NCBI GenBank assembly: GCA_020426625.1
Contig: JAGQPR010000001.1
Location: 18,992 to 82,991, forward strand
From: Planctomycetales bacterium
Lineage (GTDB): Bacteria > Planctomycetota > Planctomycetia > Pirellulales > Pirellulaceae
Direction: 5' to 3'
DNA: 64,000 nt
The number at the start of each line of letters is the position of its first letter. Positions within the stretch are counted from its first letter, which is position 1. Shown piece by piece: positions 9,560 to 64,000 of this stretch. Made by a program: the position numbers and the translations under genes. The notes under the pieces are model-generated. The model was not told where the DNA came from. It did no database searches and worked only from the letters and a program-made list of their open reading frames with translations.

Positions 9560-9562
9560 AAC

Positions 9563-9851: not shown

Positions 9852-9856
9852 CTTAT

Positions 9857-43688: not shown

Positions 43689-45125
43689 ATGGCCGACACA
43701 AAGTTGGCAAGAACGAACTCAATGCAGCTGGAGAGCGGTGTGGCTCACCAGCGTTGCATCAATCCACAGTGCAGAGCCACGTTGGACATCGCCCAAGTTC
43801 GAACTGCCTGCGATCGCTGCGGTGACCTACTAGATATTGAATACGATTGGTCGAAGACTGCGGTTCCCAAGCGATTGAGCGATTTTGAACAAATGTGGAG
43901 CCAGCGCCATTTGCCTCTGCGATTTAGCGGAGTGTGGCGGTTCCATGAATTGTTGCCTTTTGCGCCTGCCGACAAGGTGGTCACCGTCGGCGAAGGGCAG
44001 ACTTTGCTGCAACAGTCGAATGAAGTGGGTAAGTATGTTGGGATGGCAGCCGAAAAACTCTATCTTCAATACGAAGGTATGAACCCATCGGGCAGCTTCA
44101 AAGACAATGGCATGTGCGCCGCATTCACCCATGCTCGGCTGACAGGTGCCAAACGCGCGGCGTGTGCTTCCACAGGAAATACCAGCGCGTCGCTGGCGAT
44201 GTACAGTTCCGTTACGCGACTAATGAAAGCGGTGATTTTCATCGGTAGCGGCAAAATATCCTACGGCAAACTGTCTCAGGCGCTGGACTACGGTGCGCTG
44301 ACGGTACAAATCGCGGGCGATTTTGACGATGCGATGCTCCGGGTCAAAGAGGTCTCCAAGGACTTGGGAATCTACTTGGTCAATAGCATTAACCCCTTCC
44401 GCTTGGAGGGACAGAAAACAGTCATGCTCCGTGTGCTCGAAGCATTGCGATGGAATGTCCCAGATTGGATCGTGGTTCCCGGCGGCAATCTCGGCAATTC
44501 CAGCGCGTTTGGCAAAGCCTTCATTGAGCTTAAAGAGCTGGGGTTGATCAATCGCGTGCCTCGCTTGGCGGTCATCAACGCAGCGGGTGCGGACACCCTG
44601 TTTCAACTTTACGAGCGACGAGGGCTGCGTTGGAACAATGGTCAGCCAGATATGGCCATTATCGGAGATTACTACAGCGACCTGGACACTCGAAAGGCCA
44701 AGGCGGATACGATCGCCAGCGCCATAGAGATCAATCGTCCGGTCAACTTGCAGAAGTGCCTGCGTGCACTCGATTTCTGCGATGGTGTGGTCCGCAAGGT
44801 TACCGACCAAGAAATCTTGGATGCCAAAGCTCAAGTTGGCGCTGGTGGGATCGGCTGCGAACCAGCCAGTGCAGCAAGCGTGGCGGGCGCCAAACTTCTA
44901 CGTGAAGAAGGGGTCATTGCTCCCTCGGAGCAAGTAGTGTGCATTTTGACTGGGCACCAACTGAAAGATCCCACTGCGACTGTTGCCTATCATTCGACCG
45001 ACCAAGATCAATTCAACGATGTGTTAGGCAAGCGTGGCGTTAGCCGAGCTTCCTTTGCGAATCGCGCGATTGCGGTACCGAACGACCTGGACGATATCGT
45101 TCGCGCCATCCAGTTGTACAGCTAA
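43689..45125 (+). CDS. thrC: threonine synthase
   Basis: 478 aa. It has an N-terminal zinc-ribbon-like '[10 protein letters not shown]...CDRCGDLL', the PLP-lysine motif 'SGSFKDNGM' and '[10 protein letters not shown]'. Confidence 0.9.
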
Positions 45126-46255: not shown

Positions 46256-47410
46256 TCATGAGCGAAATGTTCTCCTGTATTCGCCAGGAGAAACACCAAC
46301 CTCGCGTTTGAATGCCGCTCCAAGGTACTCTGAATGCTCAAAGCCAAGTCGCTCTGCTATTTGGGGGACCGACAATTCTGTGTCAAGGAGCAGTTCTTTC
46401 GCGCGATTCATCCTGACTCGCTGAATCTCCTCGTGCGGCGTACGTCCCACCAGCTTTTTGAAGCGGTGCTCGAATGCGCGTCGTGACAGTTCAATTTGGT
46501 CGAGAACATCGTTAACGCGGATATTCGCAGAGGCCATTCGCCGAATATACTGCAGCGCTTTCCCAATTTGATCGTCGTCGATCGCAACCGTGTCGGTGGA
46601 GTCGCGCAGTCGTACACCGAGCGGTTGAGTCATGAGCGGTTGATCGTCCGTGAGCGATTCACCGTCCATCATGCGATCGAGAAGCCTGGCCGCTTCGTAG
46701 CCTGTTTGCTTCGTATCTGGGATAATGCTCGAGAGCGATGGTTCCGAAAGCTCGCAAATTAAGTGATCGTTGTCGACGCCAAGTACGGCCACTTCGGTCG
46801 GAACTGGGACGCCCAATTGTCGACAAGCATCGAGCACCTCGTGCGCTTTGAAGTCATAGCAGCCCATGATCCCAATCGGGCGCGGGAGTTTCGTGATCCA
46901 ATCCATGATTCGTTGCTTTTCTGCAACAGCATTAAAGGATTGGGCGTATCGAGCGATCGACTGATGCTCAAAGAACTGGCAGCCGGTGGATTCGACATAT
47001 TGGCGAAAGTGTTTTCCGCGTTGTAGTGACCATTGAAATCCGGCATCGCCACAATACGCCAGGCTTCGGAAGCCTCGCTCAGCAAAATGTTGAAATGCCA
47101 ACTTCGCTATCGCTTTGTCATCTGTATCCGCCCATGGAACCCCCTTGATATACCTTGCGGCACTGAGGTCAACGATCGGAACACCACATCGAACGAGTCG
47201 ACGACCTATCGCGTCGGTTTCAATCCGCGCAATGATACCGTCTCCGCCCCAGGTTTCTAACCAGGCTGGTGGAGCGGCGCCGCGTTCTTGTTCCGTCAAG
47301 TAAACGGACCAGTTCCGATGAACCTTCGTGTAGGCAATCACTCCTTCGAAAAGCCCACGGCTGTAGCCGTTAGAGGTTTCGATCAGCAACGCGACGTTTC
47401 GGCGGCCCAT
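46256..47410 (-). CDS. XylR-type regulator (periplasmic-binding-protein-like sensor + AraC-family HTH)
   Basis: 384 aa. The N-terminal sugar-binding fold begins 'VALLIETSNGYSRGLFEGV'. The C-terminal AraC HTH is 'RRAFEHRFKKLVGRTPHEEIQRVRMNRAKELLLDTELSVPQIAERLGFEHSEYLGAAFKREVGVSPGEYR'. Confidence 0.85.
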   Translation of the reverse strand: MGRRNVALLIETSNGYSRGLFEGVIAYTKVHRNWSVYLTEQERGAAPPAWLETWGGDGIIARIETDAIGRRLVRCGVPIVDLSAARYIKGVPWADTDDKAIAKLAFQHFAERGFRSLAYCGDAGFQWSLQRGKHFRQYVESTGCQFFEHQSIARYAQSFNAVAEKQRIMDWITKLPRPIGIMGCYDFKAHEVLDACRQLGVPVPTEVAVLGVDNDHLICELSEPSLSSIIPDTKQTGYEAARLLDRMMDGESLTDDQPLMTQPLGVRLRDSTDTVAIDDDQIGKALQYIRRMASANIRVNDVLDQIELSRRAFEHRFKKLVGRTPHEEIQRVRMNRAKELLLDTELSVPQIAERLGFEHSEYLGAAFKREVGVSPGEYRRTFRS

Positions 47411-47546: not shown

Positions 47547-48917
47547 CTACATATCGATTTCGTATCCTTTGCGACTTTCTCGGGAGAGGAATGCAGCCGC
47601 CTCCTCGTCTCCAACAATGGTACGCTTTTCCGGATCCCATTGAAGCTCGCGTCCTAAACGGATGGCAATGTTTGCCAGGTGGCAGGTTTCGAGCATTCGA
47701 TTGTGAGTCCAAACGTCAGAGATTGGCTGCTTTCGAGTCTGCATGGCTGCAATGAGGTTCGCAGTGTGGTTCTCGCTGACCGGTCCGCCATAGACTTCTT
47801 CCACTGCGTTCTCTGGCAGCGGATTGTTCTCAAGGTCTTCAACGGGCTTGCCAGACAAACGGCCGCGATTGACAAAGAAACGTCCCTTTGTCCCTTCGAA
47901 CAGAATGCCGTTGTCGCCTTCGCTGGTAATGACCAGCGGGATATCGCCAGGCATGTTTGCGTGGATTTCGAACTTTGTCGGCGAATTGTACTGATCAGCG
48001 ACTGTGGGATAGCCATCCTTGTAATCGACCGGCAGTGAATAACTCACAGGCGTGATCTTGTTTGGGCCGGTGTGACCGGCACCGAGAGCCCAGGTCGCGA
48101 TGTCGACGTGGTGAGCGCCCCAATCATTCATCTGACCACCTGAATATTCGTACCAATTCCGCCATGCGTAGTGGCAATTGGTGTAGAGCGGCACGCCGCC
48201 GCCGTATCCTCTCCGCATCTCCGGCAGTGCTCGATAGGGTACTTTCGGTGCTGGGCCAAGCCACACATCCCAATCAAGACCTTCAGGAACATCAATCGCA
48301 GGGATTACCGGTGATCCGGTTGCACCGTTGATTCCACAAGTCACCTTTCGAATCTCTCCAATTCGCCCGGCACGGATCAATGCGATGGCTTTCAAGAACC
48401 GTTGGTCGTTTTCCGTGCGCTGCATGGTTCCGACCTGGAAGACACGGCCGGTCTGTTTCACAATTCTTTCAATCAGCTTGCCTTCATCGATTGTCAGTGT
48501 CAGAGGTTTCTCGCAGTAGACGTCCTTCCCCGCAAGCATTGCTTCAACTGCTATCTTTGTATGCCAGTGGTCCGGTGTGGCGATCATCACTGCGTCAATG
48601 TCGTCTCGTTCGAGAACCTTTCGGTAATCGTTATAGCCGTCCGCTGCCTTGCCAGTTTTGTCTTTTAGTTTCTCGTTGACAGCCCCAAGCACGTTGGCGT
48701 CGACATCAGCAAGGGCTGCAAAGTCGGCAAACTTTGTCGACTTTTCGGTGATCGTCCAGCCCTGATTGCGTAAGCCAATGGTTGCAAAGACAGGTCGCTC
48801 GTTCGGCGACTCCTGAGCCAAGGATAAATTGCTTGTACCTGCAAAAACCCCAGCGCCTGTGAGGGCGGAAGTGGCTTGAATAAAACGACGGCGGTTCAGG
48901 TGAGACGACTTGGTCAT
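47547..48917 (-). CDS. Tat-exported Gfo/Idh/MocA family oxidoreductase
   Basis: 456 aa with twin-arginine 'NRRRFIQATSALTGAGVFAG'. It has a Rossmann N-terminus and the family motif 'VYCEKPLT'. Confidence 0.88.
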   Translation of the reverse strand: MTKSSHLNRRRFIQATSALTGAGVFAGTSNLSLAQESPNERPVFATIGLRNQGWTITEKSTKFADFAALADVDANVLGAVNEKLKDKTGKAADGYNDYRKVLERDDIDAVMIATPDHWHTKIAVEAMLAGKDVYCEKPLTLTIDEGKLIERIVKQTGRVFQVGTMQRTENDQRFLKAIALIRAGRIGEIRKVTCGINGATGSPVIPAIDVPEGLDWDVWLGPAPKVPYRALPEMRRGYGGGVPLYTNCHYAWRNWYEYSGGQMNDWGAHHVDIATWALGAGHTGPNKITPVSYSLPVDYKDGYPTVADQYNSPTKFEIHANMPGDIPLVITSEGDNGILFEGTKGRFFVNRGRLSGKPVEDLENNPLPENAVEEVYGGPVSENHTANLIAAMQTRKQPISDVWTHNRMLETCHLANIAIRLGRELQWDPEKRTIVGDEEAAAFLSRESRKGYEIDM

Positions 48918-49124
48918 TTGAGTCCTCTTAAGTAAGTACCGAGAATGAGTTAACGAGACGAAACGGAATGGGGTCAGACTAATTTTCCTAGATCATTGAA
49001 ACGTAAACAAATTTGCTTCATCAGGTGAGCTTCTTTCCGTCCGTGGAATACGTGGCGCCTCTTGTGTGCCGCGCGAAGTGCTGGAGGAAGCTGACGCTGT
49101 TGTTCGACCGATTCTTTCATTTGA

Positions 49125-50996
49125 TCAGCGTCCCACTTTCATCGGAATACCTGTTGGGCTTGGAGCTTCATCAGTGTTCGATGGCGGACCGAGGATTTCG
49201 GTGAACACTGCTTTCAGTCCGTCCGCCCAGACATCATAGGCAGGTATTTCAAGATGCAATCCGTCGCCTGAATACCCTGGCAAGAACTTCCCATCGCTGC
49301 CGGTAAGCTGTTCGTTAATATTGAGAAACTGGCAGTTGTGTTTCATCGCGAGAGACTGAAAGCGTTCATTGATGCTCTCGATAGCAGTCCGAAGCTTGGG
49401 GTTTTGGTCACGTGGAAATAAGCCCGTCAAAACAATCGACGCGTCGGGGCAACGCTTATTGAACTCAACGATGATGGCTTCGATGCCGTTGACCACATCG
49501 TCTATCGTTTCCCGACTTGCTTCGCCATTCCATGGCAAGTTGTTGGTACCTGCCTGCAGGACGACAACCTTTGGTTGAACCTGGTTCAGCTCGCCGTTCT
49601 GCATTCGCCAAAGAATGTTGTGGGTGTTGTCACCGCCCCAAGCGAAATTGGCTGCATTCCATCCGCGGAAGCTTTGATTCCAGTGCTCAAGCAATTGCGG
49701 GTAGTCGGTGGCACCCCAGCGACGTGTGATCGAGTCACCTTGGAAATAGATGTCAATCTTGCCTTGTTTCGTCTTTTGCAGCAGCTGGTCGTGGGCTGCC
49801 CGGGACAGCTCGTCCCTTCGCTCGTGCGCTGCGTGACCGGCTTCTCGCTGAAGCAGCTGAATCACCTTTCCGTATGCGGGCTTCGGTTTGAGCTCGCGAT
49901 CGAACAACAACGGGTAGTTTTTACGCTGCCACGGAAAATAATTCAGCCAGCTTTGTCCGTCATGCAGGTTCCAAAATGAAACGCGTTCGATGACGTCTTG
50001 ATACTCATCGAAGAGGCGAAACAATGCGACATACTGCTCGATCTGTTGATCTTCGATATCTGTAGGCAGTCCATCCTTGTAGGGATCATAGCTCTTCAGC
50101 TCTTCGCGAAACTTGCCCTCCTCCGCCCACCATTTTCCACGAGTCACGACATCGATATCCAACTCAGAAACCACAACCTTGAGATCGAGTTCGCGCAGCG
50201 CATCGAACGTATCGCGCAGCTGATTTAGCGAGCTGTCGCCAAGCTCGAAGTGTCCCTGCATCCCGTAAGCGTCAACCGGGACACCGCGTTCTTTCAGTTC
50301 CGTCAACAAGCGAATGAGCTTCTTTCTTTTTTCTGGAAAGTGGCAGTTGTAATCATTGTAGATCAGGATCGCATCCGGGGCATGCTCTCTGGCCGTGCGA
50401 AATGCCGTCTCGATGAATTCGATTCCAGCGGTTCGACTGTACACGGAGTCACGGAGGTAACCTTCGCTCCCATCAGCAAGCGCCTCGTTTACGACGTCCC
50501 ACATCGTTGCCGTCTCTCGATACCGGCGAACGACAGTTTCGATGTGATTCTCGATGCGGTCGAGCAGCATTTCTTTTGAGACCGGAGCACCATCATTCCC
50601 CAGTTTCATCCATTCGTCGGTTCGATCGTCCTTGGCCCAAACGAGGCAATGGCCAACAACCTCTAAACCTCTGCTTTCGGCAAACTCAACGAAGCGATCC
50701 GGGGCGGCAAAGCTCCACGTATCCTCTGCCGGGTGAATGCTCTGCGGCTTCATACAGTTCTCTGGTGTCAAGATCTGGAACTGCCTCTCGATCAGCGCGG
50801 CACAGCTCGAGTCGCCAAGTACCGACTCACCAACTCCAACACCGATTTTGAAACGTTCGCCCACAACGCTCTTCAGAGATGGAGTGCTCGCATCTGCCTC
50901 ATGCTCCTGCGCGGTCGAGAGGCTAGCTTGGCTGATATGCAATGCAATGAACCCAAGAATTACCAGCCAGAGAGTGCGCATCGAAAGGGCTTGCAT
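49125..50996 (-). CDS. bifunctional GH10 endo-1,4-beta-xylanase / SGNH (GDSL-like) esterase, secreted
   Basis: 623 aa with a signal peptide. The GH10 motifs are 'LTPENCMKPQSIHP', 'WDVVNEA', 'YNDYN', 'GMQGHF' and 'VSELDIDV'. The C-terminal SGNH blocks are 'FQGDSITRRWG', 'AWGGDNT', 'QAGTNN' and 'GDGLHL'. Confidence 0.88.
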   Translation of the reverse strand: MQALSMRTLWLVILGFIALHISQASLSTAQEHEADASTPSLKSVVGERFKIGVGVGESVLGDSSCAALIERQFQILTPENCMKPQSIHPAEDTWSFAAPDRFVEFAESRGLEVVGHCLVWAKDDRTDEWMKLGNDGAPVSKEMLLDRIENHIETVVRRYRETATMWDVVNEALADGSEGYLRDSVYSRTAGIEFIETAFRTAREHAPDAILIYNDYNCHFPEKRKKLIRLLTELKERGVPVDAYGMQGHFELGDSSLNQLRDTFDALRELDLKVVVSELDIDVVTRGKWWAEEGKFREELKSYDPYKDGLPTDIEDQQIEQYVALFRLFDEYQDVIERVSFWNLHDGQSWLNYFPWQRKNYPLLFDRELKPKPAYGKVIQLLQREAGHAAHERRDELSRAAHDQLLQKTKQGKIDIYFQGDSITRRWGATDYPQLLEHWNQSFRGWNAANFAWGGDNTHNILWRMQNGELNQVQPKVVVLQAGTNNLPWNGEASRETIDDVVNGIEAIIVEFNKRCPDASIVLTGLFPRDQNPKLRTAIESINERFQSLAMKHNCQFLNINEQLTGSDGKFLPGYSGDGLHLEIPAYDVWADGLKAVFTEILGPPSNTDEAPSPTGIPMKVGR

Positions 50997-51479
50997 TGAA
51001 CACCGAGAATTAGGGTCTTGTAGGGCGCGCCTTGGCGGCTGATACGCGTCGGTTGGACGTGGCTACCTATCTGCAGCAAGGCCGTTGCCCAACGCGTGAA
51101 ATTCCTCTGCCGTAGTACAGTTTACATCGTGCGTCTGGAAAAGCGTACCCCACGATGAAGTTCGGATCGAGGCACGTGGATTATCCGAAGACAGATGGTG
51201 ATCCTCCTGCAGGAATCACCTTTCGGTTCTGAGTCTGGAAACCTGAGCGTGTAAATCCCTTGATCAAACTACGGAAATTATGAATCCATAAAAGGGGGTA
51301 GGCTGTGCAAGTAATTCCCTTCGCGCACTCAGGTTCAAAATCCCCGGTGGATAGCGATATTTCTCCTCTTCATCATCAGTGGGTGAAGGAAACGGAGGGA
51401 TTCGCGAAACCTTCGGCATTCCCATGGTTGATGCGTCTAGGCATGAGCTCTCGCTTACCCTTGTCCCTTCAGTATGTAA

Positions 51480-51508
51480 AATTCCTCCATTGTGGTGCGC
51501 AATTCCTC
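51480..51508 (+). promoter_or_regulatory. direct repeat 'aattcctc' spaced 21 bp (candidate AraC/XylR-type operator)
   Basis: 'aattcctc' occurs at 51480-51487 and 51501-51508, with a third copy at 51100-51107. All lie in the 687-bp divergent region between the GH10-SGNH gene and the 1535-aa gene. Confidence 0.2.
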
Positions 51509-51683
51509 ATGGAATCGTGGGGGAAACTGGCTATAAAGAGATGGCGACACGAAATGCCATTCAGTTGTTTCAACGAGGTCCTCGGCAGCTGCTTGGGGGA
51601 TTTGCATTTCTGCACCACGCCAATTGCCACACAGACTGGCAACTCAAAGAAGAATTCAACCCATCGATCAACCGGAATCAAAT

Positions 51684-54600
51684 ATGAAGACCGTGGACTG
51701 TGCATTGATAGCGACCGCCTTCATTTTCGCCACTTTGCTAAACTGCTCAGTAGTTTCAGCTGAAGATGGCCCGAATGCAGATTCATCTGTCTCTGTCCTC
51801 ATGCTGGGCGATTCTGGCTTTCACAAGCCATCAGAGTTTTATCGCCACATCGCCGAACCGCTGGCAGAAAAAGGGATCAAACTACGCTACACCGAGGATT
51901 TGAGTGAGCTTAAGCGAGACAACCTATCGAAATTCGATGGGCTGCTGATTTTTGCCAATATCGAAAGGATTAACCCAGAGGCTGAATCCGCATTGCTTGA
52001 GTTCGTAAATGAGGGGGGAGGGTTGATTCCAGTCCACTGCGCATCTTTTTGTTTTCTGAACTCAGAAAAGTATATCGAGTTGGTTGGGGGCCAGTTTCAA
52101 AGCCACGGGTTCACTCGATTCGAAACCGAGATCGTTAAACCAGATCATCCGATCATGGCTGGCCTCAAGCCTGTTCAGTCGACGGACGAGAGCTATCGGC
52201 ACAGCAAGTTGAATTCAGACAAGACCGTCTTGGAGACTCGCAGCAGTGAGTCGGGACCAGTGAGCGATCCGAATGGCGAGCCCTACACTTGGGTTCGAAC
52301 GCCTGGCAAAGGCCGCGTGTTTTATACCGCGTGGGGACACGACCATCGGACATGGTCCAACGTTGACTTCCAGCGATTGCTGGCCCGCGGGACGCTTTGG
52401 GCTTGTGGGCAAACGTTGACAGCGTTTTCCGCCGACGATTCGATCGAACCGAGAGCTGTCGCCGTCAATGCCGCAAATCGCCCGTTCTCAGCTCCAGAGG
52501 TGGAGCTACCATCGCTAGACGATCAAACTTTTTCATCGAGCGACGTTGGCGCAAAGATCCCCAACTACACGCCGGGTGCTCAGTGGGGAACGCAAGCTGA
52601 GCCGTTCTCATCGATGCAAGATCCGCTGCAAGCAGAAAAGTCGATCGACGCCTTCGCAACCCCGAAGGGAATGGAGCTCTCAATCTGGGCGAAAGAGTCG
52701 AGCGAGAATTGGCCCAATCAAGATACCTCGAACCCGGAAATCGCTGGCCTGAAAGGAAAGCCGATCGCGATGAATTGGGACGAAAACGGTCGTCTTTGGG
52801 TCTGCGAAACGGTGGATTATCCGAACGAACTCAAAGAGAAGCCGGCTGTCGGACGTGACCGGATCAAGATCTGCGAAGACACCGATAACGACGGCCAAGC
52901 TGACAGATTTACGGTGTTCGCCGAGAACTTGAGCATTCCGTCAACTCTTGTCTGCTACCGAGGCGGAGCGATCGTTCAAGACGGCCAGACGACCATCTAT
53001 CTGAAAGACACCAACGGTGATGGAAAAGCTGACTTCCGACAATCGCTGATCACGGGTTGGGCCATGGGTGATACGCATGGCGGCGTGAGCAACTTCCAGT
53101 ACGGTCCTGACAATTGGATCTGGGGGATGCAGGGATACAACAACTCGCAACCAATCATCAACGGCCAGGAGCAACAGAGATTTCGCCAGGGCTTCTGGCG
53201 TTTCAAAGTCCGCGCGGGGGCTTCGGACGAAACGGCTCCGGCGTTTGCGATCGACGCCGCCTCTAATGCGGTATCCGAGACTGCGACTGACGAGTTTGAC
53301 AAACACACCATCCGAGTTGATGCACTCGAATTCATCCGTGGGACGAACAACAACACATGGGGGCTGGGGTTCAGCGAAGAGGGCTACGTCTTTGGTTCAA
53401 CTGCCAACGGATGCCCCAGCGTTCACATGCCGATTCCCAATCGCTATTACGATCGTGTTGCTGGTTGGTCACCGGAAACTTTGGGTCCTATTTCGGAGAC
53501 TTTCCGATTCAACCCAATCGACGACAAGATTCGCCAGGTTGATTACCACGGCGGCTATACGGCGGCCTGCGGTTCTGCGATCTACACTGCCCGAAATTAT
53601 CCGGAAACTTGGTGGAACCGCATTCAGATGGTTTGTGGTCCGACCGGACACCTGGTTGGGGCTTTCGTGCTTGAAAAAGACGGCGCAGGTTATCGAAGCC
53701 GCAATGCGTTCAACACCGTTGCGAGCATAGACGATTGGTCTGCGCCGATCATGTCGGAGGTTGGGCCCGACGGCAACGTATGGGTCATCGATTGGTACAA
53801 CTACATCGTGCAACACAACCCAACGCCGAACGGTTTCCAGACCGGTAAAGGTGCCGCCTACGAGAGCGATTTGAGAGACAAACGTTTTGCGCGTGTGTAC
53901 CGATTGCTTGTGGATGAATCCGCCAGTCGTTCGCCATCGAGCGCATTGCAACTGGCCGAGGCCAGCAACGAAGGACTCGTCGAGGCGTTGCGAAGCGATA
54001 ACTTCTTCTGGCGTCGAACTGCCCAGCGGCTTCTGGTGGAGCGAGAAGCCACGGATGCATCGACGTTGGACGCTCTGACTGCGTTGGTCAAGCAAGCGGA
54101 GGTCGATGAAATCGGTTTGTGTCCCGCCGCGATGCATGCGATTTGGACGCTCGCCGGTCTGGCGGATTCAGGTAGCGTTGCAGCTAGCGACGCACTCGCC
54201 GCAGCTTGCGAACTTGGCTTCAAGCACGTCTCCAGTCCAGTGCGGAATGCAGCCGTCGGGGTCTGCAATCAAGACCAACTTGCAGCCGCGATTGACTTGG
54301 GGTTGCAAACAGACGTTGATCCAAAAGTCCGTCTGACGTTGCTGCTGCGTATCGCCGACAGTGATGCAGCAAGTGTGATCGATGGCAACGGGCTAGTGAA
54401 GTTGCTTCCTTCAATTCAAACAGATGACGTCTTGTTAGATGCTTGGACCTCGGCAGCTTCGACTGATCCCGCGGTGGCCATCGTGGCGATGACCAAGTCG
54501 GAGCAATCGTCGACGGCCACGAATGCGAAAGCAGCCTCCGTACTGGCTGAACACCTCGCCCGCAGTCGCCCGTCGGCAGAACAAATCAGCCAGCTTCTGC

Positions 54601-56291
54601 AGATCGATCCCAATGCGAAGCTTGCAGTGACTGTGTGGGAAAGTCTCGCAAAAGGCTGGCCGCGAGACCTAACGATTCTCTTGCCCGCGTCATCTCAAAA
54701 ACTGGTGCGCGAGCGGTTTCTCTCGGACCAGGCATCCGTCGAGAGCAAAGCTGCTATTCTATCCGTCGCTGATAAATGGTCTGTGGAAAACTTGGCTGAC
54801 ATTGTCGGCGAGATTCAAGGCGAATTGCTCACCACCGCCTTGAATGAGGGTGCCGCCACGGACGAACGCCTTAGCGCTTGGGATCAGTCGATTCGTCTTG
54901 CCCCGACCAGCCCGAAAATACTCGACGCCTTGGAAGAATTCTTCACACCACAACTTTCCCCAGCTACTGGCGTTGAGGCTTTACGCTCTCTTCAAAACGC
55001 TCGGGTCGATGGTCTAAGCGAATCGCTTTTGGGTCTGCGAACATCGCTGGGACCGAAGCTCGGTAGTGAAGTTCTTACCCTTCTCCTGTCGCGATCGGAA
55101 ACGACGGAGTCGCTCCTGGATGCAATTACCAACGGTGACGTGCAGTTCAATGACTTGCAATTGGACCAGCGACAGGCGCTGCTCAACCACCCGACAGCCG
55201 AAATCGCTGCTCGTGCAAAGAACTTGATGGAGTCGCGTGGTGCGATGGTCGCATCCAATCGACAAGCATTGGTTGACCAGTGGATGCCAGTCATCGGACA
55301 AGACGGTGATGTCGTCAATGGACTTGCGATGTTCAAGAAACATTGCTCAGCATGCCACATCCACGGCGAAGTTGGAAACGAGATTGGTCCCAACCTCACC
55401 GGCATGTCCGTACATCCGAAGGAAGAGATTTTAATCAACGTGCTTGATCCATCACGTAGCGTTGAAAACAACTTCCGCACCTATCAAATCTTGACGGTTG
55501 ACGGAAACGTGCTGTCCGGAATGCTCTCTGGTGAATCGGCGAATTCTCTGCGTATCGTCGATACCCAAGGAAAAGAGAAGCTGGTCCTTCGAGAGGATAT
55601 TGAACGACTGACGTCGTCTCCCAAGTCGCTCATGCCCGAAGGATTTGAGAGCCAGTTGACCAAAGCGGAAATGGCGGACCTGTTGTCGTTCTTGGCCAAA
55701 CGCGGCAAGTACGCTCCACTGAGTCTTTCCAGCGTGGCGACCATCAACAGCACTAAAGGCCTTCCCGGATTCCGCGATCGTCCCGGCGATAAATTCGAAC
55801 TCGAATCTTACGGCCGCGTCCAAGTCGAAGGAGTTCCCTTTGAATTGATCGACCCGCAAGGTGATCGAATCGCAAACATCATTGGCTTGCAATCTCGCTC
55901 ACCCCGAAGACCGAGCACCCTTCCGGAGTCGGTGAGCGTTGCATGCTCAGGACACGTCGACGCGATTCACTTGCTGGGAGGTGTCGCCTGGGCGGCCTAC
56001 CCAAGATTCAGGAACGAAACGCCCAGCATGATCGTCCGCCGGCATTACGGCGATGGCTCAGTGAGTGATTATGAACTGATCAATGGCAAACACATCGTGA
56101 CCTATGAAGCAGGTGAAGATGTACCTGAATCAACGTTCGCCATCAAAGCCTTCGGCAAGCAAGTTCGCTACTTGAAGATTCCTGCGGACTCGGACAAGGA
56201 ACTTACAAAGCTCGAGTTTCTCAAGAGTGGGGATTTTTCGATTCCACTTGTCTTTGCCGTAACCGTCGAGTTCGCTGGCACCGGCCACTAG
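51684..56291 (+). CDS. multidomain secreted redox protein: ThuA-like domain + glucose/sorbosone-dehydrogenase-like beta-propeller ('membrane-bound dehydrogenase' domain) + HEAT-like repeats + CxxCH heme-binding domain + unknown C-terminal domain
   Basis: 1535 aa from the ATG at 51684 (signal 'ALIATAFIFATLLNCSVVSA'). ThuA-like motifs are 'GGGLIPVHCA' and 'GKGRVFYTAWGHD'. The dehydrogenase part has 'IAMNWDENGRLWVCETVDYPNE...CEDTDNDGQAD'. The heme domain is 'FKKHCSACHIHGEVGNEIGPNLTG...SLMPEG'. The last ~190 aa are unassigned. Confidence 0.85.
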   Translation: MKTVDCALIATAFIFATLLNCSVVSAEDGPNADSSVSVLMLGDSGFHKPSEFYRHIAEPLAEKGIKLRYTEDLSELKRDNLSKFDGLLIFANIERINPEAESALLEFVNEGGGLIPVHCASFCFLNSEKYIELVGGQFQSHGFTRFETEIVKPDHPIMAGLKPVQSTDESYRHSKLNSDKTVLETRSSESGPVSDPNGEPYTWVRTPGKGRVFYTAWGHDHRTWSNVDFQRLLARGTLWACGQTLTAFSADDSIEPRAVAVNAANRPFSAPEVELPSLDDQTFSSSDVGAKIPNYTPGAQWGTQAEPFSSMQDPLQAEKSIDAFATPKGMELSIWAKESSENWPNQDTSNPEIAGLKGKPIAMNWDENGRLWVCETVDYPNELKEKPAVGRDRIKICEDTDNDGQADRFTVFAENLSIPSTLVCYRGGAIVQDGQTTIYLKDTNGDGKADFRQSLITGWAMGDTHGGVSNFQYGPDNWIWGMQGYNNSQPIINGQEQQRFRQGFWRFKVRAGASDETAPAFAIDAASNAVSETATDEFDKHTIRVDALEFIRGTNNNTWGLGFSEEGYVFGSTANGCPSVHMPIPNRYYDRVAGWSPETLGPISETFRFNPIDDKIRQVDYHGGYTAACGSAIYTARNYPETWWNRIQMVCGPTGHLVGAFVLEKDGAGYRSRNAFNTVASIDDWSAPIMSEVGPDGNVWVIDWYNYIVQHNPTPNGFQTGKGAAYESDLRDKRFARVYRLLVDESASRSPSSALQLAEASNEGLVEALRSDNFFWRRTAQRLLVEREATDASTLDALTALVKQAEVDEIGLCPAAMHAIWTLAGLADSGSVAASDALAAACELGFKHVSSPVRNAAVGVCNQDQLAAAIDLGLQTDVDPKVRLTLLLRIADSDAASVIDGNGLVKLLPSIQTDDVLLDAWTSAASTDPAVAIVAMTKSEQSSTATNAKAASVLAEHLARSRPSAEQISQLLQIDPNAKLAVTVWESLAKGWPRDLTILLPASSQKLVRERFLSDQASVESKAAILSVADKWSVENLADIVGEIQGELLTTALNEGAATDERLSAWDQSIRLAPTSPKILDALEEFFTPQLSPATGVEALRSLQNARVDGLSESLLGLRTSLGPKLGSEVLTLLLSRSETTESLLDAITNGDVQFNDLQLDQRQALLNHPTAEIAARAKNLMESRGAMVASNRQALVDQWMPVIGQDGDVVNGLAMFKKHCSACHIHGEVGNEIGPNLTGMSVHPKEEILINVLDPSRSVENNFRTYQILTVDGNVLSGMLSGESANSLRIVDTQGKEKLVLREDIERLTSSPKSLMPEGFESQLTKAEMADLLSFLAKRGKYAPLSLSSVATINSTKGLPGFRDRPGDKFELESYGRVQVEGVPFELIDPQGDRIANIIGLQSRSPRRPSTLPESVSVACSGHVDAIHLLGGVAWAAYPRFRNETPSMIVRRHYGDGSVSDYELINGKHIVTYEAGEDVPESTFAIKAFGKQVRYLKIPADSDKELTKLEFLKSGDFSIPLVFAVTVEFAGTGH

Positions 56292-59627
<3,336 letters not shown>

Positions 59628-59682: not shown

Positions 59683-61983
59683 ATGTCTTTCAAAACGCTT
59701 GCTTTCTTCTGCTGCTTGGCACTGTGCGCTGGGTTCACGCTGGCCCAAGAGTCGAAGCAAAGTTCGGAAGGCTTGACCGGCACATGGTATTGTCAGTTCG
59801 AATCGCCCGTCGGATTGCAGACTTACCACTTTCACATAGCGATCGATGGCGCTGGCGATGCGACAGTGAATGCAGAAGTGAAGGCTCGCGACGAAGTACG
59901 GAAAGTTGAGTTCGTTGATGTGAAAGTTGGCGAAGATGCGATTTCTTTCGTAGAGGTTCGCCAGTTTGGCGAGCGAGAGTTTCGGATCGAATACAGCGGC
60001 AAACTCAATGGAAAGGAACTCGCGGTAACTCGGTCATTTGGAGAGCGAGGCGGACAGGACGCACTTGCAACCCGCGATCTTCCGCAGTCGCCTCCGCAAG
60101 AAAGCCTTCAGCCCGTGGTCGAAGTCAAAATCGATCGCATCATCAAAGATGCATTCAAAGATGCCTTCTTGATTGGTATGGCAGGAGACCTTCCGTCGCA
60201 CTACTCCGATGAAGAACTGAAGCTCGCTGCGGAACACTTTGCCGCAATCACTCCCGAAAATTGCATGAAGCCCGAACGCGTCCATCCGGCTGAGGATCGT
60301 TGGAATTTTGAGTCATCCGACGCTTTGGTGGAATGGGCCCAAATGCACAAGATGACGATTCACGGTCACACCCTGGTTTGGCATGCTCAGACACCGAATT
60401 GGTTTTTCGAAGGTGGTGACTCGGAGACGATCAAGCAACGTATGAAGCAACACATCGAAACTTTGGCGGGACGCTACAAAGGACAGTTGCAAAGTTGGGA
60501 TGTCGTCAATGAAGCAATAAGCGATGGTGGCAATGCTGAGACAGCGAAGACGGAGAATCTTCGCAACTCAAATTGGCTTCAAGCACTGGGACCAGAGTTT
60601 CTCACGTTGGCGTTCAAGTACGCTCGTGAAGCGGATCCCGATGCCGTGCTTTACTACAACGATTACAACATCGAATCGGGACCAAAGCATGCAAGTTCAA
60701 TGGTTCTACTGAAGCGACTTCTGGATGAGGGGGCTCCAATTGATGGGGTCGGTATCCAAGGCCACTGGCGCAGCGGGCGCGTTCCTTTCGACGATATCGA
60801 AAAGGCCATTGCGGACTATGCATCGCTGGGATTAAAAGTCAGCATTACCGAACTGGACGTTACTATTCGCGGTGAGTCCGGTGGTCAATTTGGCAGACGT
60901 CAGTCCCGTAGTAATACTCCCGCTTCACTCGATGACCTGAACGCGCAAGCCGAAGACTACGCCAAGCTGTTTTCCATTTTCAAAAAACACGAAGATGCGA
61001 TCGAACGTGTAACGTTTTGGGGGCTCAGCGATCGACGAACTTGGAGGTGGGGGCAACATCCGCTACTCTTCGACGCGAACAACAATCCCAAGCCGGCTTA
61101 CGCCAGCATCGTCGCGTTAACTAGAGGAGATGAAGCCGAAAGTGCTACCAATCAACCCAAGAAAGTCGAGATCGAAGATGGCGGGCAGGGTCCTTATTCC
61201 GCGATTGTCACTGAATCACCAACTCTTTCCGGCATGACGATCTATCGCCCGGAAGATCTCAACGCGTTTGGAACGGAACAAAGGCTCCCAGTGCTCTTAT
61301 GGGGAAATGGCGCGTGCGCGAACACAACTGAGGAACACAAGAACTTTCTCAACGAAATTGCGTCGCATGGATACATCGTTCTCGGCATTGGTCTACTCGA
61401 CCAGTTGCAGCAGCGAGATGAGTCCTCTCGTCAGCGGACGAATTCTTCTCAACTGATTGCTGCCTTGGACTGGATCATCGCGCAAGACGCAAACGACAAC
61501 AGTATCTACTTTGAGAAGATTGATACGACCAAAGTCGCTGCAATGGGCATGTCGTGTGGTGGATTACAAGCCATCGAGATTTCAGACGATCCGAGAATCA
61601 CCACGACGGTGGTTTGCAACAGTGGCGTTTTGCCTAGTCGTTCACCGATGGCCTCAATGCCAGACTTGACCAAGGATGACCTCAAGAAGTTTCACGGCCC
61701 TGTCTTGTACATCATGGGCGGCCCTTCTGACATCGCGTACAACAATGCGATGGACGATTTCTCGCGAGTCGATCATGTGCCCATCGTGATGGCAAATCTA
61801 GACGTCGGTCATGGAGGTACCTACCGTCGACCACACGGCGGCAAGTATTCTCCAGTAGCTCTTGCCTGGCTCGACTGGCAACTAAAAGGAAAGCAGGATG
61901 CTGCCAAAACGTTTCTTGGTGAGAACAGTCAACTTGCGAATGATTACGAGTGGAAGATTGAAACGAAAAACATTCACCAGTAA
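59683..61983 (+). CDS. GH10 endo-1,4-beta-xylanase with N-terminal unknown module and C-terminal alpha/beta-hydrolase domain
   Basis: 766 aa with a signal peptide. The GH10 motifs are 'ITPENCMKPERVHP', 'WDVVNEA', 'YNDYN', 'GIQGHW', 'ITELDVTI' and 'VTFWGLSD'. The C-terminal hydrolase has 'LPVLLWGNGAC', the nucleophile elbow 'GMSCGG' and 'LDVGHGG'. Confidence 0.88.
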   Translation: MSFKTLAFFCCLALCAGFTLAQESKQSSEGLTGTWYCQFESPVGLQTYHFHIAIDGAGDATVNAEVKARDEVRKVEFVDVKVGEDAISFVEVRQFGEREFRIEYSGKLNGKELAVTRSFGERGGQDALATRDLPQSPPQESLQPVVEVKIDRIIKDAFKDAFLIGMAGDLPSHYSDEELKLAAEHFAAITPENCMKPERVHPAEDRWNFESSDALVEWAQMHKMTIHGHTLVWHAQTPNWFFEGGDSETIKQRMKQHIETLAGRYKGQLQSWDVVNEAISDGGNAETAKTENLRNSNWLQALGPEFLTLAFKYAREADPDAVLYYNDYNIESGPKHASSMVLLKRLLDEGAPIDGVGIQGHWRSGRVPFDDIEKAIADYASLGLKVSITELDVTIRGESGGQFGRRQSRSNTPASLDDLNAQAEDYAKLFSIFKKHEDAIERVTFWGLSDRRTWRWGQHPLLFDANNNPKPAYASIVALTRGDEAESATNQPKKVEIEDGGQGPYSAIVTESPTLSGMTIYRPEDLNAFGTEQRLPVLLWGNGACANTTEEHKNFLNEIASHGYIVLGIGLLDQLQQRDESSRQRTNSSQLIAALDWIIAQDANDNSIYFEKIDTTKVAAMGMSCGGLQAIEISDDPRITTTVVCNSGVLPSRSPMASMPDLTKDDLKKFHGPVLYIMGGPSDIAYNNAMDDFSRVDHVPIVMANLDVGHGGTYRRPHGGKYSPVALAWLDWQLKGKQDAAKTFLGENSQLANDYEWKIETKNIHQ

Positions 61984-62043
61984 GCCCGTACGGTAAGACC
62001 AGAAACTATTGGGTCCAAGAAACTGTGTTGGACTGCTTCGATT

Positions 62044-64000
62044 GTGAGGATCCAAGTTTTGACCAATAAATGCCTTGCCGTGGTCTGCGTCTGCACCATG
62101 CTACTTTGCAGTCGCTGTGCATTTGCTCAGCAGTCCAAAGCAACGGACTTCGAGCGAGACGTTCTACCTCTGCTTGAGAACTACTGCATCGATTGCCACT
62201 CCACCGAAGAAGCTAGCGGCAATCTTCGTCTCGACAATGTCAGGCCAAATGAGACGACTGTTGATCCAGCGCAATGGCATCGAGTCCTCAAGAATCTTCG
62301 CGCCGGGATCATGCCGCCAATCGACTCTCCAAAACCAACACCCGACGAACTATCAAGTTTGGAGCAATGGATTAAGTCCGAAGCATTCAAGTCAAATGCT
62401 GACAATCCCAATCCAGGCCGCGTAACTCTGCGACGTTTGAATCGCGTCGAGTACAGGAATGCGATTCGCGATCTGCTGGGTTTCGACTTCGACGCCGAGC
62501 ATAAATTGCCTCCGGACGACGTAGGCTACGGGTTTGACAATATTGGAGATGTGCTTTCAATTTCTCCGATTCGTTTGGAGAAGTTTATTGAGGCAGCCAT
62601 TTCAATTGTCGAAGAAGGAACGCCCCAAGATACCTTGGAGATTCCATCGCAGGACTTTCTGCCTGAAGACTTTGTCGACGAGGACGGGCGAGACGCCGAC
62701 GCCATTTCTTTTTACCAATCACGTACTGTCAGGCGTGCGATCACTGTTCCAGGTGACGGTGAGTACCTGATCCACGTGTACGTCAAGGTGGATGGGGATC
62801 CGTTTCCCAAAGATCCGCAAGAGTGCCTGGTGCGCGGTACCGCTGACGGCAAGGAATTCTTTAAAGAGCAGTATCAATGGGCTGACAACAACTGGCTGGA
62901 GTATGACTGCTATGTGACGCTCACGAAGGGAGAGCATGACATTGCGTTTTCCACCGAACCCGTTCATTCTGAACTACAGCGACTGCGCAGCAAAATGGAC
63001 TTTCGCATGGTGAGTGTTCGGGTTGATGGTCCGCTCGATCGTCAACAATGGACTCATCCGCCTGGATACGAATTGATTTACAGTCGTGAAGTTCCTCCAA
63101 CGGACTACGCTGAACGCCGCAAGTACACATCGGAGGTGTTGCGACGTTTTGCGTCCAAGTCTTTTCGCCGGCCTGTTTCTGAAGGTACGTTAGCCAAACT
63201 TGTTGCCCTGGCAGAAGCGACATATTCGCTAGAAGGCAAGACATTCGAGCAAGGTATCGGGCAAGCGATTGTCGCCATTCTCTCTTCACCAAAGTTTCTC
63301 TTTCATTTCGAACAATCTGATGCAGCGAGCGATATTGCGGAAATAGACGAATATAGTTTGGCAGCTCGTTTGTCTTTTGCTCTCTGGCGTTCCATACCAG
63401 ATGACGAGCTTACGGAGCTAGCCAGCAGGGGCGAGTTGCGGTCCAACTTTGAAGCACAGGTAAAGCGGATGATCGCTGATCCGAAGTCAGGAGCATTTGT
63501 CGAGGGATTTTCCCATCAGTGGCTTCAGACGAATGCCATTGTCGACATCGCCATTAACTCAGAAGCCATTATGGAATTGGAGGCGACAGAATCGGAAGTC
63601 CAGCAACGGGATGGAAGTGCAATGGCGCGAGGCCGTGAATTTGGTGCCGGTCCAGGTGCACGCAGATTCGGATTTGGTTTCCGCCGAGGGCGTCCACCCT
63701 ACGATGGCAAGGCGCTAACGCCCGAAGTTCGACAAGCGATGAAACTGGAGGTAGAAGCCTACTTTGACTACATCATGCGCGAGGACCGTAGTGTTCTCGA
63801 GTTTCTTGATAGTGATTACGTATTTGCAAATGCTGACTTGTCAAAACTCTACCAACTACCCGACATCGAGGGTTCGGAGCTACGAAAGATTCAACTGCAG
63901 ACAAACAATCCGCGTGGCGGCGTACTCACGATGGGCAGTGTATTGACGGTTACTTCAAATCCAACTCGAACCTCGCCAGTTAAACGAGGACGTTGGGTAC
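62044..64000 (+). CDS. DUF1587/DUF1592/DUF1588 (PSD/PSCyt3) family protein with CxxCH motif, 3'-truncated by window end
   Basis: This frame-1 reading frame is open from the GTG at 62044 to the window end, so it is missing from the ORF track. It has the signal 'CLAVVCVCTMLLCSRCAFAQ', 'LPLLENYCIDCHS' and 'RRLNRVEYRNAIRDLLG' (DUF1587). It also has 'VLRRFASKSFRRPV' (DUF1592) and 'SNPTRTSPVKRGRW' (DUF1588). Confidence 0.82.
   Translation, partial: MRIQVLTNKCLAVVCVCTMLLCSRCAFAQQSKATDFERDVLPLLENYCIDCHSTEEASGNLRLDNVRPNETTVDPAQWHRVLKNLRAGIMPPIDSPKPTPDELSSLEQWIKSEAFKSNADNPNPGRVTLRRLNRVEYRNAIRDLLGFDFDAEHKLPPDDVGYGFDNIGDVLSISPIRLEKFIEAAISIVEEGTPQDTLEIPSQDFLPEDFVDEDGRDADAISFYQSRTVRRAITVPGDGEYLIHVYVKVDGDPFPKDPQECLVRGTADGKEFFKEQYQWADNNWLEYDCYVTLTKGEHDIAFSTEPVHSELQRLRSKMDFRMVSVRVDGPLDRQQWTHPPGYELIYSREVPPTDYAERRKYTSEVLRRFASKSFRRPVSEGTLAKLVALAEATYSLEGKTFEQGIGQAIVAILSSPKFLFHFEQSDAASDIAEIDEYSLAARLSFALWRSIPDDELTELASRGELRSNFEAQVKRMIADPKSGAFVEGFSHQWLQTNAIVDIAINSEAIMELEATESEVQQRDGSAMARGREFGAGPGARRFGFGFRRGRPPYDGKALTPEVRQAMKLEVEAYFDYIMREDRSVLEFLDSDYVFANADLSKLYQLPDIEGSELRKIQLQTNNPRGGVLTMGSVLTVTSNPTRTSPVKRGRWV

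Follow-up and report, generated by a model that had tools for sequence, protein, structure and literature searches.

What does an exported protein that joins a beta-propeller to a c-type cytochrome do among genes for xylan breakdown, and does the oxidoreductase encoded close to it belong to the same system? The question is raised by a stretch of 64,000 nucleotides from a Planctomycetales bacterium of the family Pirellulaceae (GenBank assembly GCA_020426625.1, contig JAGQPR010000001.1, positions 18,992 to 82,991), called here the window, in which a compact, divergent xylan-degradation cluster begins just past the housekeeping gene thrC (43689-45125). The window holds a divergent xylan-utilisation cluster beside a XylR-like regulator, and its plus-strand operon opens with a large multidomain protein, referred to below as the megaprotein; a second enzyme of redox type, the Gfo/Idh/MocA oxidoreductase Gfo456, is encoded on the minus strand. 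An initial annotation had seen in these two genes the redox arm of a xylan locus, and they do lie embedded among xylanase genes, with glycoside hydrolase family 10 (GH10), carbohydrate esterase family 1 (CE1), GDSL and SASA genes around them. The answer reached below is that the megaprotein is a context-defined new variant within an uncharacterised family, and that Gfo456 is ordinary, widespread and loosely attached.

A xylan-linked clade of propeller-cytochrome proteins

The megaprotein consists, in order, of a ThuA domain, a DUF7133/TIGR02604 propeller, a helical region, a TIGR02603 CxxCH heme domain and a beta-sandwich of 196 amino acids (Table 1). Domains were called, at scores well beyond chance, by Pfam and NCBIfam scans on the open reading frames of the window with at least 200 amino acids, and both family models pass their curated cut-offs: TIGR02604 with 182.7 bits (cut-off 122.2) over residues 360-727, and TIGR02603 with 116.4 bits (cut-off 68.15) over residues 1209-1340. 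Judged by these matches and by the common order of propeller, helical region and C-terminal CxxCH domain, the megaprotein is an ordinary member of the NCBI family "PVC-type heme-binding CxxCH protein", and its orthologues at 75-82% identity are entered in NCBI under that name, as "c-type cytochrome" or as "ThuA domain-containing protein". The family is large, with 5150 matches at E<=1e-10 among the scored candidates, and 20 TIGR02604 proteins have been counted in one Gemmataceae genome, that of Limnoglobus roseus. What distinguishes the sub-clade of the window protein from the family at large is that it is flanked by, or fused to, CE1 and GH10, and that it bears the extra, mobile C-terminal beta-sandwich.

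What is new here is precisely this clade of xylan-linked orthologues, genetically coupled to CE1 esterases and GH10 and fused to them in several lineages. A scan of a genome collection gave 80 loci (labelled L; database proteins are labelled P) in two tiers, orthologues 61-76% identical and paralogues 42-48% identical, which can share one genome, as in Aporhodopirellula (L002 and L062); when the database is added to the genome loci, the orthologues across Pirellulaceae are 61-82% identical. The propeller is the most conserved part across the 80 loci (59-87% identity) and the helical region the least (27-36% in the paralogues), and all domains, the C-terminal one included, are kept in both tiers, save for ThuA, which about half of the orthologues have lost. 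When the neighbours in the window were used as tblastn queries, and only loci with enough flank were counted, CE1 or GH10 homologues of at least 50% identity were found beside 15 of 21 orthologue loci versus 1 of 49 paralogue loci (Fisher p = 1e-9, a value that ignores shared ancestry). In 14 of the 21 orthologue loci the megaprotein gene is followed downstream, mostly with nothing in between, by a homologue of the CE1-type (PF00756) esterase, and in other cases the two are fused; GH10 homologues that are close (67-86% identical) occur in 7 of those 14, and weaker GH10 matches in 3 more. The gene type with two CE1 domains and a SASA domain is the most constant partner of the megaprotein, and orthologues of the GH10 xylanase with an alpha/beta-hydrolase domain follow downstream in L001, L003, L008, L011 and L021. 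The order in Roseiconus is Gfo456 upstream, then megaprotein, esterase and GH10; Rubripirellula is alike, except that the esterase is fused. The cluster is also carried by the cultured relatives Stieleria magnilauensis, Aporhodopirellula rubra and Roseiconus nitratireducens.

The fusions themselves take several forms. One database orthologue (P0015) is joined at its C-terminus to GH10, and others (P0018, P0020-22, P0024, P0035 and P0053) to one or two CE1 domains, P0053 having no ThuA. The most extended form is a single open reading frame of 2450 amino acids in a Rubripirellula sp. metagenome-assembled genome (L011, 9989-17338), which comprises a ThuA-less megaprotein, two successive CE1 domains and GH10. 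A paralogue at 43% identity (L072) has been fused to CE1 independently, and the theme is repeated in distant family members, with the orders ThuA-GDSL-DUF7133-HEAT-F5/8C in L082 and GDSL-DUF7133-HEAT-PA14-cupredoxin-cytochrome c in L125. Because CE1 and GH10 flank the gene across loci and natural fusions exist, the tie of the megaprotein to xylan goes beyond adjacency in the window, and the best evidence for an action on acylated glycans is that the propeller-cytochrome unit has repeatedly been fused to carbohydrate esterases and to modules of carbohydrate-binding type. The literature searched (family names, ThuA function, planctomycete xylan transcriptomes) yielded no paper linking the PVC-type heme-binding CxxCH family to xylan, and, on the family itself, only Cheng et al. 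(2017) and the line of work of Naumoff and Dedysh.

The CxxCH heme domain of the initial annotation is borne out, and looks functional from its motifs. CSACH occurs once (55344-55358) and is followed by a conserved KSLMPEG (55623-55643), which would supply the distal Met; residues C1222, C1225, H1226 and M1318 are invariant in 11 homologues, and heme binding is predicted. The nearest solved relative in a search of PDB sequences is Kustd1711 (7zs0; residues 1197-1331 against 164-305, E 2e-8), and the alignment takes in both the CxxCH and the Met-Pro motif. Kustd1711 is a high-potential diheme cytochrome c of Kuenenia stuttgartiensis with hemes at about +350 mV (PMC11791136), to whose C-terminal half the heme domain is homologous; it differs in being a small stand-alone electron carrier of the nxr cluster, whereas the window protein holds one such domain inside a multidomain protein. 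A distant DUF7133 protein of 1639 amino acids (L125, 11714-16633), directly downstream of a Gfo456 orthologue, carries GDSL, HEAT_2, PA14, a plastocyanin/azurin-type copper (cupredoxin) domain and a cytochrome c, that is, two distinct electron-transfer domains in one family member. Given the invariant CxxCH and Met, the homology with Kustd1711, and the cupredoxin and cytochrome of L125, a redox role would be likelier than a decorative heme.

The megaprotein open reading frame spans 51624-56291, and the ATG at 51681 gives 1536 amino acids, not the 1535 first counted; its exported and multidomain nature stands. The N-terminus is of Sec type, MKTVDCALIATAFIFATLLNCSVVSA followed by ED, in agreement with the starts of orthologues, and hydrophobic N-termini are found in orthologues with and without ThuA. 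Cleavage by signal peptidase I is favoured because the conserved SA before E(D/E) fits it. A lipoprotein reading (LLNC) was considered and rejected, as the Asn at -1 is unfit for a lipobox and the position varies in orthologues. As to the helical region, which had been described as some 450 amino acids of HEAT-like repeats, a stretch of about 435 is there; it gave no match to HEAT or any other Pfam family in the megaprotein itself, and the equivalent regions of some paralogues and other family members match HEAT_2.

The reading that we favour, tentatively and with somewhat less than even confidence, is that the megaprotein would be a carbohydrate oxidoreductase of the periplasm, linked to cytochrome c and cooperating with xylan esterases; it is placed in the periplasm because heme c is attached there. 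Its operation could be as follows: (i) the protein would act on xylan or xylo-oligosaccharides freshly deacylated by the esterases; (ii) the propeller would be the catalytic domain that oxidises the substrate; (iii) the electrons would leave via the protein's own His/Met heme c toward the aerobic respiratory chain; (iv) the helical region may serve as a spacer or docking scaffold; and (v) the beta-sandwich may be a module that binds a ligand or a partner, and ThuA an accessory domain that can be lost in the clade. Of the oxidative pathway first proposed for the locus, the tie between megaprotein and xylan and the functional-looking heme are thus retained, and a ThuA/ThuB mechanism, a propeller with pyrroloquinoline quinone (PQQ) and Gfo456 as a core component find little or no support.

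Several observations weigh against such an oxidoreductase. Neither phmmer nor profiles (one full-length, A1, and one diverse and propeller-only, A4) run against all PDB sequences related the propeller to a PQQ or other known dehydrogenase. Foldseek with a low-confidence model of the propeller retrieved generic six-bladed propellers, those of hydrolases, lyases and dehydrogenases alike. The sole member of the TIGR02604 family to have been assayed biochemically, Lac161_ORF7, was reported as a lactose-hydrolysing beta-galactosidase. Gfo456 is usually found away from xylan genes and DUF7133 genes; the MarR regulator and WrbA-like flavodoxin present in most relatives hint at phenolic or quinone rather than sugar chemistry; and the synteny counts are not phylogenetically independent.

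Gfo456, a widespread enzyme loosely attached to the cluster

The Gfo/Idh/MocA enzyme with an RRRF signal for twin-arginine translocation (Tat) was correctly recognised at the outset. It matches PF01408 with 58.5 bits (cut-off 24) and PF19051 with 58.5 bits (cut-off 23.3), its N-terminus MTKSSHLNRRRFIQATSALTGAGVFAGTSNLSLA contains the canonical twin-arginine leader NRRRFIQ, and the Tat signal model TIGR01409 gives 17.1 against a cut-off of 16.7, with the motif kept in orthologues. It also shows EKP and GAHHVD, motifs that active members of the family have. Among curated models the nearest is NF058561 (glycoside 3-dehydrogenase), where the score is 137.3 bits, the cut-off is 750 and the alignment is confined to residues 8-293; its best PDB relatives, 8tdf and 8tdh (E 4e-23), are likewise matched in the N-terminal half only. 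With the periplasmic glycoside 3-dehydrogenases of the BT2158 family (NF058561; 8tdf, 8tdh, 8tdi) Gfo456 shares the Tat signal and the pair PF01408 and PF19051, but it lies far below the family cut-off, and the lyase and DUF1080 hydrolase that are partners in the BT2158 route are absent from the window cluster. The NAD-dependent glycosidases of family GH109 (such as 2ixa) align only with residues 40-195, the Rossmann part (E 8e-11), and fall short of full-length similarity; the name "alpha-N-acetylgalactosaminidase" on some orthologue records is taken as an automatic annotation. Gfo456 would be a separate periplasmic sugar oxidoreductase, presumably carrying bound NAD(P), and one that probably acts on the same sugar pool as the megaprotein cluster.

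A contrary explanation is that Gfo456 is unconnected with both xylan and the megaprotein, being a conserved general periplasmic oxidoreductase that stands beside the cluster by chance in one lineage of Pirellulaceae. This is quite possible, although we do not consider it the probable case. The enzyme is 70-87% identical across many genera (79-87% among the best 120 database matches, 69-84% in metagenomes), and its conservation reaches other planctomycetal orders, up to the Planctomycetales genus Alienimonas. In R. baltica a flavodoxin/WrbA-like gene precedes Gfo456 as its only conserved neighbour and there are no xylan genes, and in Crateriforma and Alienimonas it stands alone. Among 50 metagenomic Gfo456 loci of at least 8 kb, flavodoxin occurs in 6 and xylan genes in only 1-2.

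Against mere chance, the linkage to the cluster outlives rearrangement. Gfo456 adjoins xylan clusters in the window and in L001, L002, L003, L021, L077 and L085, in differing arrangements, and the gene for GH10 fused to GDSL accompanies it in L002, L003, L021 and L077. In the closest relatives a MarR regulator and a WrbA-like flavodoxin lie between GH10-GDSL and Gfo456, or adjoin the latter (L001, L002, L003, L021, L085), and in Roseiconus, Aporhodopirellula, Stieleria and Rubripirellula the group of MarR, flavodoxin and Gfo456 is divergent from the megaprotein operon. In the window the MarR-flavodoxin pair is missing from the cluster, where there is only a gap of 207 bp (48918-49124), and in L077 Gfo456 is on the same strand, as the gene immediately after the megaprotein and ahead of GH10-GDSL. 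Moreover, DUF7133-cytochrome genes unrelated to the megaprotein lie downstream of Gfo456 in 3 of the 50 metagenomic loci, directly in L125 and L129 and one gene off in L137; the direct cases come to about ten times a rough estimate that assumes some 20 such genes per genome.

As far as gene context indicates, then, Gfo456 is a general enzyme with a recurrent minority association to DUF7133 proteins, and its presence in the window cluster is a lineage-specific recruitment within a subset of Pirellulaceae, not that of an obligate megaprotein partner. Since it is conserved throughout the phylum and has xylan genes beside it in so few metagenomic loci, its membership of a xylan redox arm would be facultative, and the two-gene arm of the initial annotation does not hold: a pan-planctomycetal enzyme, found mostly outside xylan loci, is not a defining part of it.

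The propeller, its partner domains and their possible chemistry

The propeller had been likened to soluble glucose/sorbosone dehydrogenase (GSDH). It matches Pfam DUF7133 (residues 359-742, 330 bits), and in an alignment of divergent members (A4) few residues are invariant; one is a His that corresponds to H712 (QHNP) in the window protein, and none could be linked to a cofactor. Another invariant residue is H466 (THGG). The similarity to GSDH or PQQ enzymes is another matter, for three divergent DUF7133 domains gave no match to GSDH (PF07995) at E<=10, Pfam returning DUF7133 only, and among PDB sequences there is only weak similarity to NHL and teneurin blades. The AlphaFold2 model, built from an alignment of 25 sequences, is partly confident, with a predicted local distance difference test score (pLDDT) of 63 and values below 50 for residues 293-400 of the modelled segment. 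With that model, the PQQ-type glucose dehydrogenase of Thermus (2ism) has the top template modelling score (TM; 0.37/0.51, 0.51 being that on the target), and the LRE, DFPase, PAL, NHL and 6PGL propellers beat it on E-value, so that fold support is generic and from a poor model. By sequence comparison, "glucose/sorbosone-dehydrogenase-like" is a legacy description, not visible in the sequence.

The fungal AA12 PQQ pyranose dehydrogenase (with its AA8 cytochrome and CBM1) and cellobiose dehydrogenase serve as an analogy of the "works-like" kind. The likeness consists in a catalytic domain, a tethered cytochrome and a small terminal beta domain amid glycan-degrading enzymes. The differences are that the fungal cytochrome is b-type and that of the megaprotein c-type, and that the latter protein is bacterial and periplasmic, without detectable PF07995/GSDH similarity, a recognisable carbohydrate-binding module (CBM) or, in the window, a lytic polysaccharide monooxygenase partner.

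As for that terminal beta domain, the unassigned C-terminal region of about 190 amino acids noted earlier is present, with 196 and no Pfam match, and its AlphaFold2 model is all-beta and confident (pLDDT 93.7). The only significant PDB matches are the aziridine-forming enzymes AziU2/AziU3 (8gs1, 7wuw; TM 0.62-0.65, E 5e-7 to 6e-6), which are the best fold match but have an identity of only 15-17%, an unrelated biological context and no evidence of shared catalytic residues. It had been put forward as a candidate CBM. Pfam gave no CBM match, and in the fold search lectins and CBMs reached only TM <=0.4 at E>0.01, with CBM6, 30, 35 and 36 at TM 0.25-0.35, normalised to the query, and E>0.02, so that the fold lends the CBM proposal no support; the occurrence of the domain does fit, as it is mobile, found in tandem and placed next to CBMs. 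An exhaustive search of representatives found it in 347 clusters of varied architecture: at the C-terminus of HEAT-cytochrome proteins, at N-termini, beside AbfB/CBM42, Laminin_G_3 and DUF1080 in WD40 proteins, and in three tandem copies after a Ser/Thr kinase domain. A word-indexed homologue search with the domain alone returned only short fragments of the megaprotein family. Among the proteins that carry it are P0259 (1255 amino acids), P0276, P0352 and P0359. The domain looks like a candidate new family. Because its mobile and tandem occurrence matches the behaviour of binding modules, binding of a ligand or partner remains the best guess for its role, and because it is conserved at 36-42% identity in paralogues outside xylan loci, binding specific to xylan is unlikely. 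A type-1 copper site (conserved Cys1422/His1430) was also considered and rejected, the spacing not being cupredoxin-like and no cupredoxin appearing in the fold search.

The main rival to an oxidoreductase is that the DUF7133 propeller cleaves glycans without redox chemistry, as a glycosidase or lyase acting on a xylan side chain or on oligosaccharides, and that the cytochrome would be structural, sensing or unrelated. This view of TIGR02604 proteins was proposed by Cheng et al. (2017) and by Naumoff, Dedysh and colleagues, the latter classing them as putative beta-propeller glycoside hydrolases because of the result with Lac161_ORF7. That protein (AGW45552), in which TIGR02604 and HEAT are combined with a cytochrome c, was found to complement an S. 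meliloti lac mutant, and when purified it freed glucose from lactose with a Km of 1.8 mM and a kcat of 13 per s in assays that used a glucose-oxidase/peroxidase kit (Cheng et al., 2017; PMC5342196). It has the three core domains in common with the megaprotein and differs in its size of about 109 kDa, in the lack of ThuA from the domain description of the paper, in its origin from a Chthoniobacter-like verrucomicrobium, in its activity on lactose and in its genomic context. A cleaving propeller would also fit the many hydrolytic and lyase propellers among the Foldseek matches, and the fact that no beta-xylosidase, alpha-glucuronidase or arabinofuranosidase was found among the cluster genes in the Pfam and NCBIfam scans, which leaves an exo-acting activity missing. 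Nevertheless, we regard this explanation as unlikely: the activity comes from a single unreplicated report on a distant member, with a glucose-oxidase/peroxidase read-out on a heme protein, and no follow-up was found in the literature searched; an invariant CxxCH with distal Met, and fusions with both cupredoxin and cytochrome, are hard to explain without electron transfer; and the release of glucose could in theory come, as we speculate, from oxidation followed by elimination.

This last possibility leads to a bolder conjecture, which we hold to be rather improbable: that in the Planctomycetes-Verrucomicrobia-Chlamydiae (PVC) bacteria the DUF7133-cytochrome c proteins could make up an extensive class, so far overlooked, of carbohydrate oxidoreductases linked to cytochromes, which would amount to an "auxiliary activity" family of bacteria. 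In the xylan clade the propeller would oxidise the sugar hydroxyl just bared by the fused or adjacent CE1 or GDSL esterase, heme c would pass the electrons to the respiratory chain, and the keto-sugar would cleave the bond by elimination. If true, this would explain why a family member has been seen as a "beta-galactosidase" that frees glucose from lactose, and would give Gfo456 a task, namely to reduce the keto products again or to convert them further.

The mechanism proposed in the initial annotation was that the ThuA domain and Gfo456 form a 3-dehydrogenase like ThuA/ThuB of Sinorhizobium/Agrobacterium, which would make 3-keto-xylo-oligosaccharides and hand the electrons to the attached cytochrome c. 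The ThuA domain it relied on is certainly present, PF06283 giving 125.7 bits against a cut-off of 33.4 (PDB relatives by sequence, 1t0b/4e5v); Gfo456 is closest to glycoside 3-dehydrogenases; and, as in ThuA/ThuB, PF06283 and a Gfo/Idh/MocA enzyme occur in one locus in a sugar-inducible context. ThuAB has been described as a cytochrome-c-dependent 3-ketoglycoside dehydrogenase (Liu et al., 2021), which would also fit. The paralogues that keep ThuA, and all of them do, nearly always have a Gfo/Idh/MocA gene directly upstream: in 27 loci it is immediately upstream on the same strand and encodes about 370 amino acids. XylR-like regulators flank 15 paralogue loci, and this combination suggests that the family is linked to sugar redox chemistry in general. 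One paralogue locus (L082, 8830-19577, Pirellulaceae SH467) holds a XylR-like regulator, a signal-less Gfo enzyme of 362 amino acids, a ThuA-DUF7133-cytochrome protein and then the ThuA-GDSL fusion protein mentioned above, two family members in tandem.

We nonetheless consider a mechanism of the ThuA/ThuB kind very doubtful. Roughly half of the xylan-linked orthologues have had ThuA deleted, among them that of L077, where Gfo456 is directly downstream of the megaprotein; the ThuA-less ones start, after the signal peptide, at a conserved linker (…ANRPF..PEM…), and the remnants, "VTILLLGESG" (10 residues) in L011 and only the last ~39 residues of the domain in L007, indicate at least two deletion events. 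Near the ThuA-less orthologues no stand-alone ThuA gene was found, and a complex of the ThuA/ThuB type therefore cannot be the core mechanism of the clade. ThuAB consists of two small proteins without a cytochrome, whereas the ThuA of the window is one exported domain of a hemoprotein, and Gfo456, far from being co-transcribed with it, is on the other strand, 2.7 kb away and separated by the GH10-GDSL gene. Gfo456 is mostly without a ThuA or DUF7133 neighbour, and a Pfam scan of the window found no 3-keto-glycoside lyase (sugar-phosphate-isomerase/epimerase-like) or DUF1080 hydrolase. A one-electron heme, furthermore, would accept hydride from bound NAD(P)H only by way of a mediator. In the paralogues the Gfo partner lacks a signal peptide and the ThuA domain is exported, so that the enzyme would act in another compartment; their arrangement resembles, by analogy, the periplasmic oxidation with cytoplasmic follow-up of the direct-oxidation pathways of Pseudomonas and Gluconobacter more than it does a ThuAB complex.

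Least probable of all is that the megaprotein performs phenolic or quinone chemistry, on ferulate, diferulate or lignin-carbohydrate fragments freed by CE1 esterases, instead of sugar chemistry: its closest partner domain is indeed feruloyl-esterase-like CE1, and most relatives have a MarR-family gene directly upstream or divergent, often with a WrbA-like NAD(P)H:quinone oxidoreductase, but the best matches of these MarR genes, the regulators of aromatic catabolism Saro_0803 and HpaR, are far below threshold (55 versus 200 bits), the window has a XylR-type sugar regulator and neither MarR nor WrbA, paralogues of like architecture adjoin XylR-like regulators and sugar-type Gfo enzymes, and a phenol oxidoreductase built of a propeller and a cytochrome is, as far as we know, without precedent.

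The surroundings of the cluster and its wider meaning

The features of the cluster are collected in Table 1. The closest homologues of the window proteins are from Rhodopirellula, Roseiconus, Stieleria and Novipirellula, and orthologues of the XylR-like regulator, at 77-79% identity, hold the matching position in L002, L003 and L021.

Table 1. Genes and protein domains of the xylan cluster, with positions in the window.
Feature	Position	Strand	Basis or remark
XylR-like sugar-responsive regulator (PBP1_XylR, Peripla_BP_3, AraC helix-turn-helix)	46256..47410	-	Pfam; last gene of the minus-strand arm
Gfo456, Gfo/Idh/MocA oxidoreductase, 456 amino acids	47547..48917	-	PF01408 and PF19051
Twin-arginine signal peptide of Gfo456, MTKSSHLNRRRFIQ...SLA	48816..48917	-	Translation; TIGR01409
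GH10 xylanase fused to GDSL/SGNH esterase	49125..50996	-	Pfam
Megaprotein, exported PVC-type heme-binding CxxCH protein, 1536 amino acids	51681..56291	+	Pfam, NCBIfam
Sec-type signal peptide, cleavage probably after VSA	51681..51758	+	Read from sequence
ThuA-like domain (class-I glutamine-amidotransferase-like fold), residues 48-241	51822..52403	+	PF06283
DUF7133/TIGR02604 beta-propeller, two DxDxDGxxD calcium-loop-like motifs	52755..53906	+	Best-conserved part of the megaprotein
Helical (HEAT-like) linker, ~435 amino acids, about residues 760-1195	53958..55265	+	Least conserved part of the protein
TIGR02603 c-type heme domain	55305..55700	+	NCBIfam; CSACH and KSLMPEG
C-terminal beta-sandwich, 196 amino acids, mobile module, possibly ligand-binding	55701..56288	+	AlphaFold2 model; no Pfam family
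Two PF00756 (CE1, feruloyl/acetyl-xylan-esterase-like) domains and a SASA acetylesterase domain	56364..59627	+	Pfam, NCBIfam
GH10 xylanase with C-terminal alpha/beta-hydrolase (PETase/DLH-like) domain	59683..61983	+	Pfam

The two arms are separated by a divergent intergenic gap of 685 bp, whose repeats are short and unconvincing, and no operator site is claimed there; scans for promoters and terminators over 45-63 kb did no better than on shuffled sequence, and the Rfam and tRNA scans of the window were empty. An open reading frame of 152 amino acids with a GTG start (51305-51763, plus strand) runs into the beginning of the megaprotein gene in a different frame. It was considered as a degenerate MarR gene and rejected, since it neither clusters with nor resembles the MarR genes that relatives have at this position, and it is probably spurious. 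The last 2 kb or so past the final GH10 gene (62000-64000) contain no open reading frame above 123 amino acids, no tRNA and no Rfam match; they may represent the remains of a gene, an element that annotation has missed or just a long stretch between genes, and the cluster appears to end here.

Elsewhere in the window, an open reading frame of 2098 amino acids (34280-40576, minus strand), just upstream of the housekeeping block, has no Pfam match at E<=0.001. A row of minus-strand genes at 8087-15186 comprises DUF1501, PSCyt1/PSCyt2/PSD1 "planctomycete cytochrome" and SASA+BNR (acetylesterase and sialidase-like) genes; the PSCyt1/PSCyt2/PSD1 gene is another case of a heme-motif protein adjoining a carbohydrate esterase, and genes of this kind are hallmarks of planctomycetes.

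Planctomycetes and Verrucomicrobia have many PVC-type heme-binding propeller proteins per genome, together with dozens of exported Gfo/Idh/MocA enzymes. None of these propeller proteins has an accepted function, and the xylan clade offers the first well-defined and testable substrate context for the family. The question at stake is whether electrons from glycans are fed straight into the respiratory chain, or whether oxidative steps take the place of hydrolytic ones in the breakdown of hemicellulose. Either answer bears on the annotation of carbohydrate-active enzymes, which at present ignores PVC-type CxxCH proteins, and on the estimates of carbon and oxygen turnover for the planctomycetes that abound in waters and soils.

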